Positions 38,187 to 40,276 of a stretch of DNA of 40,276 nt are shown here, one piece after another. The DNA comes from a virus: the UHGV virus genome UHGV-0069047; one strand, written 5' to 3'. Within the stretch, counting starts at the first letter, position 1. Each line of letters starts with the position of its first letter. Both the position numbers and the translations under genes were made by a program. The notes under the pieces were generated by a model. That model was not told the origin of the DNA. It searched no databases and was given only the letters and a program-made list of their open reading frames with translations.

Positions 38187-38486
38187 GTGAGAAAGTTAAG
38201 CCGACTTGAAAAATATCACATGAACAAGGTTTCAATGCGCCGTCCTTCAAAGGTTATCGCCGTTACTCCTGCGGCGATAGAGATCGAAAAACGCGCGATT
38301 GAAAGAGAGAAAAAAGGGCAATTCCGCATTGCCGCTCACCTTTGGCTTCAGTGTATGGATGTTGCTTCTGGTGATGTTGAACGTGCAAGGATCGCGGTTC
38401 GCAGGGACCAATGTATCACAAAAGGTAACGGCCTTCGCCGTGGCGACTATAGCGGTATAGGATGTTGCGGGGTGGTTTATGAATAA
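38187..38486 (+). CDS. PerC-like small regulator (tentative)
   Basis: Pattern RIAAHLWLQC...ERARIAVRRDQC resembles PerC/Pch family from memory; start uncertain. Confidence 0.35.
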   Translation: MRKLSRLEKYHMNKVSMRRPSKVIAVTPAAIEIEKRAIEREKKGQFRIAAHLWLQCMDVASGDVERARIAVRRDQCITKGNGLRRGDYSGIGCCGVVYE

Positions 38487-39582
38487 ACAAAACAATAATA
38501 TAAAAGGTAATATCATGAGAAAGGTAGGCGATTATTTCTTTGAATTTCCCGCATCACGAGGAACGCAGGGAAGCACTGCAATACTTATGATGACAGTACC
38601 AGCAAGAGCACTATCGAGAGTATTGGCAACCGACAATACGGGAAGCACCCTTGAACGTTCTCAACGTGAAATTAATCCAACTAGGGTAAAAAAGTTTTAT
38701 CAATATTTAGTCAACGCTTACGAGAAAAAGGAACCATTTATTGTTCCACCATTGGTCGGAAATTGTAACTCAGAAATAGAGTTCCATGAGATTGGAAATA
38801 CTAATGTCGGTTTAGCTAGATTTCCTATGGATGCAGAAATAAAATTATTTGATGGACAGCATCGTGCTGCAGGATTAGCTGAGTTCTGCCGTAATTATGG
38901 TGAAACAATTATGATTCCTCTTATGCTTACGCATAACCTTCCTTTGAAGGCGCGTCAGCAGTTCTTTTCTGACATTAATAATAATGTTTCAAAACCATCT
39001 GCAGCAATTAATATGGCGTATGACGGACGAAACGATGTTGCCCAAGAAATGGTGTCTTTCCTGTCGCAACATGACACTTTTGCAGAAGTCACTGACTTCG
39101 AGCACAACGTTGTTCCGTCAAAGTCAAACATGTGGGTGAGTTTCAAAGCATTAAGTGATTCAACATCAAAATTTTGTATTCATAATGGAAAAAAACTAGA
39201 AATTGGTAACATCGAGTCAGTATGGGAATCATGGTTATGTCTTACACAACTAGAAGCAATTCGCCATGGTACAAAGCAATCAGAATACAAAAGAGAATAT
39301 ATCCAGTTTCATGCAGTGATGATTAACGCTTTTGGTTATGCTGTTCAGCAAATGATGGTTAATCACTCAATAAAAGAAATAATTTCAATGATTGAAACAT
39401 TATGTGCAAATACTGACTTCGCAGAAAGAGAGAATTTTTTCCTAATGGATAATTGGGTTGGGATCTGCACGAAAGCAAGCCAGGAAAAACTATCAGTTAT
39501 TGCCAATGTAGCAGCACAGAAAGCGGCAGCAAACAGGCTGATACAAGCCTTTACCAAAGGAAGTCTGGGAGCAGAACAATGA
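38479..39582 (+). CDS. DGQHR-domain protein (DndB-like, ParB/Srx fold)
   Basis: Exact motif LFDGQHRAAGL; AT-rich gene; stop overlaps methyltransferase start (ATGA). Confidence 0.7.
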   Translation: MNKQNNNIKGNIMRKVGDYFFEFPASRGTQGSTAILMMTVPARALSRVLATDNTGSTLERSQREINPTRVKKFYQYLVNAYEKKEPFIVPPLVGNCNSEIEFHEIGNTNVGLARFPMDAEIKLFDGQHRAAGLAEFCRNYGETIMIPLMLTHNLPLKARQQFFSDINNNVSKPSAAINMAYDGRNDVAQEMVSFLSQHDTFAEVTDFEHNVVPSKSNMWVSFKALSDSTSKFCIHNGKKLEIGNIESVWESWLCLTQLEAIRHGTKQSEYKREYIQFHAVMINAFGYAVQQMMVNHSIKEIISMIETLCANTDFAERENFFLMDNWVGICTKASQEKLSVIANVAAQKAAANRLIQAFTKGSLGAEQ

Positions 39583-40226
39583 AAAAATACACGCTAATAT
39601 ATGCAGATCCACCCTGGGTATACCGGGACAAAGCCGCAGATGGTAATCGCGGCGCTGGTTTTAAATATCCGGTTATGAGTGTGCTGGATATCTGCCGCCT
39701 TCCTGTGTGGGATTTGTCCGATGAAAACTGTCTGTTGGCCATGTGGTGGGTGCCAACACAACCACTCGAAGCACTAAAAGTTGTTGAAGCCTGGGGATTC
39801 CGTCTGATGACCATGAAGGGCTTCACGTGGATAAAATGTGGTAGTCGACAACCAGATAAACTAGTTATGGGTATGGGACACATGACTCGCGCCAATAGTG
39901 AAGATTGCCTGTTTGCGGTAAAGGGAAAACTACCTCCGCGCATTAATGCAGGTATCGTTCAGTCATTTACCGCACCGCGGCTTGAGCATTCAAGAAAACC
40001 AGATGTCGTTCGTGAAAAACTTGTGCAATTGTTAGGCGATGTTTCTCGCATTGAACTGTTCGCCCGCCAGTCGTCTCATGGCTTCGATGTTTGGGGTAAT
40101 CAGTGCGAAGACCCGGCAGTGCAACTACACCCTGGATACGCGTTGGATATTGGCGGATTAACAAATGCATTCAGCAATGCTCCGCTGTCACCAACAGACA
40201 ACCAGGGGCGGGAGCGTGCAGCATGA
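39579..40226 (+). CDS. MT-A70-type N6-adenine DNA methyltransferase
   Basis: N-terminal IYADPPW motif; about 215 aa; SD GGGAG. Confidence 0.7.
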   Translation: MKKYTLIYADPPWVYRDKAADGNRGAGFKYPVMSVLDICRLPVWDLSDENCLLAMWWVPTQPLEALKVVEAWGFRLMTMKGFTWIKCGSRQPDKLVMGMGHMTRANSEDCLFAVKGKLPPRINAGIVQSFTAPRLEHSRKPDVVREKLVQLLGDVSRIELFARQSSHGFDVWGNQCEDPAVQLHPGYALDIGGLTNAFSNAPLSPTDNQGRERAA

Positions 40227-40276
40227 ACAGGGCATCACCAGCAGATTTAAGGAAATGCCTTGAAACTGCAAACATG
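40223..40276 (+). CDS. 5' end of a further coupled gene running off the window
   Basis: ATG overlaps methyltransferase stop (ATGA) with SD upstream; only 18 codons visible. Confidence 0.3.
   Translation, partial: MNRASPADLRKCLETANM

Follow-up and report, generated by a model that had tools for sequence, protein, structure and literature searches.

The DNA considered here, which we call the window, is the whole 40,276-nucleotide stretch of virus genome UHGV-0069047, and four plus-strand genes close it in its last 2.1 kb: a PerC-like gene, a gene of the DGQHR/DndB-like family, an MT-A70 methyltransferase gene (the methylase), and a DUF1382 gene. In other phages, relatives of the DGQHR protein are encoded just upstream of five kinds of methyltransferase, an arrangement suggestive of a phage DNA methylation helper or regulator that has yet to be described. 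The features at this end of the window, including the nucleoside triphosphate (NTP)-binding loop predicted for the DGQHR protein, are as follows.

38187-38486, plus strand: PerC-family small protein; PF06069 at 30.2 bits (cut-off 22.6), PHROG 868 over its full length at E 5e-61.
38495-39581, no strand assigned: inserted cassette without a phiV10 counterpart; flanking ATGA at 38479-38482 and 39579-39582.
38515-39582, plus strand: DGQHR-domain (DndB-like, ParB/sulfiredoxin [Srx]-fold) protein of 355 amino acids (aa); PF14072, TIGR03187.
38851-38865, plus strand: codons for D-G-Q-H-R, residues 113-117 of the 355-aa protein, a predicted NTP-binding loop, located from the sequence.
39579-40226, plus strand: MT-A70-family N6-adenine methyltransferase, 215 aa; PF05063, with DPPW at 39606-39617 (residues 10-13).
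40223-40276, plus strand: 5' end of the DUF1382 gene, cut by the window end; PF07131 at E 5e-29, 64 aa in NZ_OX030728.1.
37829-38077, plus strand, upstream context: AlpA-family small DNA-binding protein (excisionase-like); PF05930 at E 3e-5, annotated AlpA in phiV10.
38074-38190, plus strand, context: open reading frame (ORF) for a predicted 38-aa membrane protein; the phiV10 and SPN1S annotations label its homologue a membrane protein.

The PerC-like ORF ends in a TAA stop at 38484-38486, and its annotated starts differ: GTG 38187 in SPN1S and PHROG 868, ATG 38220 in the phiV10 RefSeq record, and ATG 38235 with PGAP. A 367-aa ORF opens at ATG 38479 and closes at 39582. The ATGA at 39579-39582 holds both the DGQHR stop and the methylase start, and that at 40223-40226 holds the methylase stop and the DUF1382 start; these overlaps and the exact DGQHR and DPPW motifs are present as described in the original prediction, which had been made from the sequence alone. 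Escherichia coli NZ_OX030728.1 is a 100% match and supplies the sequence past 40276, in which the 64-aa DUF1382 gene is followed by a tyrosine integrase gene on the minus strand and by guaA. The element is a phiV10/epsilon15-like prophage adjoining guaA in E. coli. Its operon runs, after a repressor-like helix-turn-helix (HTH) gene, through two small genes, a YqaJ-type exonuclease, RecT, AlpA, the 38-aa membrane protein, PerC, DGQHR (where present), the methylase, and DUF1382. The four-gene stretch is the integrase-proximal end of this recombination/excision (early) operon, the position that had been proposed for it.

The DGQHR protein matches PF14072 (DndB) at E 2e-46 (159 bits, cut-off 29.1) and TIGR03187 (DGQHR) at 192.3 bits (cut-off 58.85) over profile positions 1-276 of 276, and its N-terminal domain has the ParB/sulfiredoxin alpha+beta fold. 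Across 41 homologues the D, G, Q, and R of the motif are invariant and the H is at least 90% conserved, and the RSQRE and FSDIN.N..KP motifs are largely conserved. The equivalent motif DGQQR is needed for the NTPase activity of SspE and has also been discussed for DpdB (PMC10164549); with its motif intact, and by analogy to the relatives DpdB, SspE, and a DndB-like protein for which the activity is known, the window protein is predicted to bind or hydrolyze NTP. The C-terminal 155 residues form a confident helical domain in the predicted structure (pLDDT 89.5), with no informative structural match, and this domain searched alone gave no match to an HTH. Although DndB-like, the protein is no genuine DndB: its score against the DndB equivalog TIGR03233 is 110.8 bits, below the cut-off of 328, and the 20 kb of source genome surrounding the DGQHR-methylase pair have no annotated dndCDE genes and also no TGT-like gene that could be dpdA. 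PADLOC gives only DndB and MTase_II. A DGQHR profile run against Protein Data Bank (PDB) chains returned nothing meaningful (best FliG, E 0.56), and a profile-based homologue search recovered the same close relatives as a single-sequence search, with no distant ones among the matches listed. The family comprises 229 clusters at 90% identity (E < 1e-5) and 536 representatives at 50% identity (E <= 1e-3), and is abundant in enterobacterial prophages. One member, P0234 (591 aa), has a DGQHR/DndB domain C-terminally fused to the mismatch-binding MutS domain I (PF01624, E 2e-20).

The methylase matches PF05063 at 77.8 bits (cut-off 23.9; E 1e-21) over profile positions 1-172 of 172 and the PADLOC MTase_II profile at E 5e-76; with profile matches above the cut-offs for both proteins, the expected pairing of a DGQHR/DndB-like ParB-fold protein with an MT-A70 methyltransferase is borne out. 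Its nearest solved relatives are the MT-A70 proteins 7f4r/7f4l (E 3e-13) and METTL3 (E 3e-6). It is 97.7-99% identical to the methylases of phiV10-type phages and ~82% identical over residues 2-186 to those of Stx2a phages, with the C-terminal tails diverging after residue 186; the Stx2a relatives lie 2-4 kb from the int end in >100 Stx2a-converting phages. When overproduced alone, M.EcoGV methylates GATC in DNA, and M.EcoPA8orf6770P alone is weak and non-specific; together with PNB-2 (gp6), a 143-aa winged HTH (wHTH) protein encoded by the overlapping upstream gene, M.EcoPA8orf6770P forms a 1:1 complex that prefers 16S rRNA (PMC10810198). Our link to these published enzymes rests on Stx2a-phage gene position and family and not on direct sequence alignment. 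In phage ArgO145 the order is PNB-1, PNB-2, and methylase, with an ATGA overlap, and a tblastn search of the window with ArgO145 PNB-2 found nothing (best E 8.3).

The DGQHR gene is an addition to this backbone. The window is collinear with phage phiV10 (Uetakevirus, epsilon15-like), mostly at 97-99% identity, with a few short blocks at 83-91% and a few replaced blocks. In a blastn comparison with the whole phiV10 genome, 31801-38494 aligns at 97.6% and 39582-40276 at 98.0%, and 38495-39581 is unmatched, an insert of 1,087 bp with clean junctions, sited at the methylase start codon. The PerC gene of phiV10 directly overlaps the methylase start, and phiV10 has no DGQHR gene. In the junction alignment, the left homology stops at ..GGTGGTTTATGA and the right homology restarts at AAAAATACAC.., with ATGA on both sides. 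At ATG 38479 the original methylase start of the backbone survives together with its ribosome-binding site, and by chance this start reads in frame into the cassette; the overlap of PerC with DGQHR is therefore a legacy of the backbone, not a trait of the DGQHR family. The overlap at 38479-38486 noted in the original prediction is thus present, but the conserved start of the DGQHR family is ATG 38515: all homologues open with MSKVGDYFFEFPA, PHROG 7901 aligns from residue 13, and PGAP uses 38515. Isoforms of 367 aa and 355 aa are both possible with 38479-38514 in frame, and the 12 added residues are conserved in no homologue.

The full form with the insert is found in 21 of the 539 E. coli genomes that match the region, ~96% being without the cassette, and in all 18 matching phage records PerC and the methylase are about 1 kb apart and insert-free. 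The DGQHR gene is AT-rich, as had been remarked, with a G+C content of 0.34-0.41 compared to 0.48-0.55 in the flanks (0.38 and 0.50 overall). We considered low G+C as a trait of the DGQHR family and rejected it: for 81 distinct DGQHR alleles the mean G+C difference from the flanks is -0.018, and the window allele is the only one at -0.12. The nearest other alleles, outside the window-type prophage, are 73-78% identical. Horizontal acquisition of the DGQHR gene, which the original prediction had suggested, is well supported by the insertion, its presence in few genomes, and the allele-specific low G+C, as is a source of lower G+C. PerC-methylase-DUF1382 is the ancestral phiV10 arrangement, to which the DGQHR gene was added later, and the idea that the four genes form one unit fails in that they were not co-inherited. 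The C-terminal ~90 residues of the window protein (39250-39579) are much nearer to the DLP12-type allele (P0020) than is the rest (73% overall), which suggests from sequence comparison that the window allele is a mosaic recombinant.

The position of the DGQHR gene before a methyltransferase recurs widely. Annotated phages, one genome per species, and IMG/VR, where the scan started from family motifs, yielded 255 DGQHR loci; de-replication by sequence, not by phylogeny, left 163 unique ones. Neighbors were called as longest ORFs and clustered, and each cluster was Pfam-named from one representative. In 63 of the 163 loci a same-strand DNA methyltransferase lies within 2.5 kb downstream of DGQHR, and in 10 it lies at a downstream distance of 2.5-6 kb; the 828 kb of upstream sequence from these loci contained none when searched by BLAST with all six methylase clusters. 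By gene position, the methyltransferase is the first downstream gene (D1) in 28 loci, the second (D2) in 29, and the third (D3) in six, and it is one of the two upstream genes (U1 and U2) in none. For most of the larger upstream clusters, Pfam scans of representatives identified recombination, SSB, ParB-HTH, ArdA, and DUF2303 proteins. The original prediction held that DndB-type proteins do not normally partner with amino-methyltransferases; in phages, to the contrary, a methyltransferase is the commonest recognizable neighbor.

Five methylase families lie downstream: MT-A70 (two subtypes), phage Dam (PF05869), N6_N4 (PF01555), D12 (PF02086), and C5 (PF00145). In loci with either MT-A70 subtype, with Dam PF05869, or with D12, stop and start codons can overlap in a four-base ATGA. 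Methylase-linked members are present in 18 of 39 DGQHR clusters at 90% identity and 12 of 29 at 80%, and the link reaches branches that share no more than 28-39% identity with the window protein (L005, L185, L187-189, L192, and L195); in Vibrio phage Va_PF430-3_p42, for example, DGQHR is followed by a C5 methylase, a small gene, and an integrase. Within a single 90% DGQHR cluster of 33 loci, the gene precedes MT-A70 (12 loci), Dam (13 loci), or N6_N4 (three loci) enzymes. In other lambdoid phages the order is YqaJ, PNB-2-like, DGQHR, c1, and methylase, with PNB-2 homologues (54% identity) directly upstream of DGQHR. HK639 and the Stx2a phages lack DGQHR; in them too a PNB-2-like gene precedes the methylase, immediately so in the Stx2a phages. 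Two unrelated backbones therefore carry DGQHR at a position just 5' of the methylase, behind the gene that usually precedes it.

We found the DGQHR-then-methyltransferase order across five families described nowhere, nor the natural plus/minus DGQHR polymorphism in the phiV10-type prophage, and among the literature mentioning DGQHR there is none on phage methylase neighborhoods. The database annotation of the proteins, part of the methylase clade, the ParB-fold/methylase fusions, and the DndB and DpdB precedents are already known.

Two further types of gene are seen at these loci. A gene we call c1, encoding a 154-aa or 179-aa protein, regularly lies between DGQHR and the methyltransferase (L008:7065-7529, L037:7046-7585, and many lambdoid loci among L036-L060); the 179-aa form matches Sigma70_r4_2 at 30.7 bits and has a sub-threshold match to the N terminus of GcrA, an m6A-reading regulator of Caulobacter, and c1 may be a third member of the module. 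ASCH/PUA-like proteins adjoin DGQHR genes (L012:7062-7727, L189:6053-6721, and also L015, L121, L125, and L185), a type of domain that also occurs in fusions with ParB-CTPase folds (PMC12704722).

Several characterized systems resemble the pair in part. DndB, the first gene product of the dnd operon, tunes the level of modification (PMC4507180), and like the window protein it has PF14072 and the DGQHR motif and is encoded immediately upstream of DNA-modification genes; unlike DndB, the window protein falls below the equivalog cut-off, has no dndCDE nearby and a methyltransferase as its partner, and belongs to a phage early operon. DpdB, a ParB-like ATPase, is required for DNA modification by DpdA and forms no stable complex with it (PMC10164549). 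It shares with the window pair the placement of a ParB-like NTPase beside a DNA-modifying enzyme, and coupling without a stable complex fits one DGQHR type occurring with unrelated methylases; however, the DpdB motif is DGQQR where the window has DGQHR, its partner is a transglycosylase, and DpdB is essential, whereas the window methylase clade exists without DGQHR.

Fusions of a ParB-CTPase fold to a methyltransferase are enriched in phages, and ATP and GTP binding is known for a DndB-like protein (PMC12704722). These fusions and the Bce_0392 ParB-methylase (cited in PMC5512222) likewise combine a nucleotide-binding ParB/Srx-fold module with an orphan methyltransferase in prophages, and an anti-defense role has been proposed. 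The window differs in having two ORFs, the stop of one overlapping the start of the next, and in belonging to the DGQHR/DndB branch with a helical C-terminal domain of 150 aa; the reported phage ParB fusions have N6_N4 and Methyltransf_23 enzymes, and the MT-A70 fusions are in archaea (PMC12704722).

The Stx2a-phage homologue of the methylase, M.EcoPA8orf6770P-PNB-2, has its specificity conferred by the product of the overlapping upstream gene (PMC10810198). It has the int-proximal position, the ~82% identity, and an upstream gene overlapping the methylase start (ATGA) in common with the window, but its partner is the 143-aa wHTH protein PNB-2, and the window has a 355-aa ParB-fold protein and no PNB-2 homologue. 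The closest arrangements are in Uetakevirus relatives. In phiV10, gp34-gp33-gp32 give PerC-methylase-DUF1382-int in a 97-98% identical backbone, but without the DGQHR gene. SPN1S_0035-0031 has overlapping PerC-DUF1317-DGQHR-methylase genes with the DGQHR protein 75% and the methylase 77% identical to those of the window; unlike the AT-rich window allele (0.38), the SPN1S DGQHR allele has the G+C content of its flanks (0.51), and DUF1317 precedes it.

We tentatively favor, at somewhat less than an even chance, an explanation in which the DGQHR protein is a DndB/DpdB-like NTPase that acts on DNA alongside the methylase, and its gene is an accessory cassette plugged into a methyltransferase module. 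This builds on the protein families, fold, and unbroken motifs, on an insertion placed exactly at the methylase start codon, and on the recurrent gene order over five methylase families; NTPase activity, DNA binding, an effect on methylation, and the timing of expression are what it would predict. The DGQHR product would be a ParB/Srx-fold NTPase that binds DNA in a nucleotide-dependent manner and, working on the substrate DNA and not on its partner enzyme, promotes, targets, or limits adenine methylation by the translationally coupled MT-A70 protein. It would do so when the early (recombination/excision) operon is switched on, and the outcome could be a contribution to shielding phage DNA from restriction. 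The pair would then be an unfused, DGQHR-branch version of the phage ParB-fold/methyltransferase combinations, working like DpdB with DpdA, and among the three functions guessed at in the original prediction, a split form of the ParB-methylase fusions fits best. Because near-identical DGQHR proteins precede unrelated enzymes, action through DNA is favored over specific protein-protein contacts, and a fixed protein complex is not expected; because each gene persists alone, the role of DGQHR is likely to be facultative.

A number of observations count against this explanation. A methylase with 97-98% identity stands without DGQHR in phiV10 and in about 520 E. coli genomes, which makes absolute dependence on DGQHR unlikely. 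Conversely, a DLP12-type cryptic prophage without any methylase holds an intact DGQHR gene, 99.4-100% conserved, in 284 of 5,426 E. coli genomes. In the ParB-HTH-upstream (Klebsiella-type) 90% cluster, 37 of 41 loci lack a methylase within three genes, a few loci having a C5 or a distant Dam enzyme, and a longer DGQHR branch (34-39% identical; L019-L023, L182, and L183) is found in ArdA-x-DGQHR-PsiA neighborhoods. Both gene types are part of the short run of accessory genes next to int, where conserved operon order explains some of the adjacency and, with the small distance to int, could produce much of it; shared ancestry among the loci also means that the counts are too high as a measure of independent events. 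There is no DGQHR-methylase fusion among ten long (479-661 aa) DGQHR representatives, the literature searched holds no experiment on the DGQHR family, and PHROG 7901 has no assigned function. The original prediction had allowed that the pair might prove to be a well-characterized methylase operon whose activity does not depend on DGQHR. Two findings bear on this: the clade is partly characterized (M.EcoGV and M.EcoPA8orf6770P; PMC10810198), and a near-identical methylase exists without DGQHR.

For the DLP12-type prophage, we note that it lies at tRNA-Arg (L256:18085-25255, E. coli AST217) with the order gam pseudogene, bet, exo, DUF1317, DGQHR, TraR ... intD, and that the rest is decayed, with IS insertions.

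A substantial though doubtful alternative is that the DGQHR gene is an independent accessory gene (a moron), encoding a ParB-fold NTPase, possibly a nicking enzyme, that serves a separate purpose in conflicts between phage and host or among phages, or in the establishment of incoming DNA; its adjacency to methylases would come from an exchangeable integrase-proximal region spliced at gene boundaries. The intact DGQHR gene of the methylase-free DLP12-type prophage, the ParB-HTH-upstream loci mostly without a nearby methylase, and the completeness and frequency of the methylase without DGQHR are all in keeping with this, as are the ArdA-x-DGQHR-PsiA loci of the distant branch, which resemble the ssb/ParB-like/psiB/psiA leading region of IncI and IncF plasmids (PMC4288162). 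ParB-like domains of mobile elements have also been reported as NTPases and non-specific nickases (PMC5512222). However, an independent gene does not readily account for an order that is strictly one-sided (73 methylases downstream and none upstream), for ATGA coupling that recurs with four methylase types, or for the same insertion point, just 5' of the methylase after its usual neighbor, in two unrelated backbones.

It is improbable, though worth weighing, that DGQHR is a DndB-type regulator, a nucleotide-modulated, sequence-specific DNA binder that represses or times the downstream methylase and so holds a potentially toxic enzyme in check. DndB, encoded first in its operon, binds promoter palindromes and lowers modification (PMC4507180), and constitutive expression of the phage methylase M.EcoGII is deleterious (PMC5778455). 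But no sigma-70-like promoter site was found between PerC and the methylase, the whole 7.8-kb stretch being poorer in such sites than shuffled sequence, and a search for a cassette-borne promoter thus came out negative. DGQHR and the methylase have a stop/start overlap and probably a common transcript, which would leave a repressor without an obvious operator, and both the low DndB equivalog score and the lack of an HTH match in the C-terminal domain also speak against a regulator of this type. A restriction-modification-like or toxin-antidote module, in which DGQHR (through a ParB nuclease and/or a HEPN-like C-terminal domain) attacks unmodified nucleic acid and the methylase protects the phage, is very improbable: a HEPN domain was described in DndB by Makarova et al. 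(PMC3632139) and the window protein has an Rx4-6H-type motif (R260-x5-H266), but several orthologues have K in place of R260, the Vibrio homologues lack the motif, no nuclease domain is detected by Pfam, NCBIfam, or PADLOC, and DGQHR is stably carried without a methylase in 284 genomes.

The explanation we favor, an NTPase acting on DNA beside the methylase, has a broader form that we consider possible but unlikely, in which DGQHR/DndB-like proteins are general, exchangeable NTP-driven DNA adaptors for modifying enzymes, serving Dnd, Dpd, and at least five unrelated phage methyltransferase families. They would act on DNA with no fixed partner, and could make early genome-wide methylation fast or phage-selective.

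One of the main ways in which phages evade restriction is through orphan methyltransferases. Fusions of ParB-fold domains to such enzymes are common; in the window, both parts are separate genes. The phiV10-type prophages with DGQHR (21 genomes) and without it (about 520), together with the DGQHR-only DLP12-type prophage, are near-isogenic natural controls in E. coli, and the role of a ParB-fold module for a DNA-modifying enzyme is directly testable there. An answer would join Dnd, Dpd, and methylation through one accessory protein family. The locus also bears on the target of the methylase clade, GATC in DNA for M.EcoGV as opposed to 16S rRNA for the PNB-2 holoenzyme (PMC10810198).

Other parts of the window also depart from phiV10. 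Among the blocks without a phiV10 counterpart are 552-1070, 1086-1625, 7153-7809, and 28930-31800, and these contain, at the far window end, a lipoprotein (Gly-zipper/TraT-like) and a DUF5384 protein, and further an AntA-type antirepressor and a variable DUF551/Ead-Ea22 region. The tail fiber (3730-6381, minus strand; 3734-6037) is unlike that of phiV10 and bears a Peptidase_S74 (endosialidase chaperone) domain, and the O-antigen acetyltransferase region of phiV10 has no match within the window; the receptor specificity therefore probably differs. Several of the matching genomes are K1 or avian-pathogenic strains. In the recombination genes, the YqaJ-type exonuclease (36020-36841) and RecT (36811-37779) are separate overlapping ORFs, separate in PGAP too, whereas the phiV10 record has one fused RecE-RecT gene of 1,761 nucleotides.

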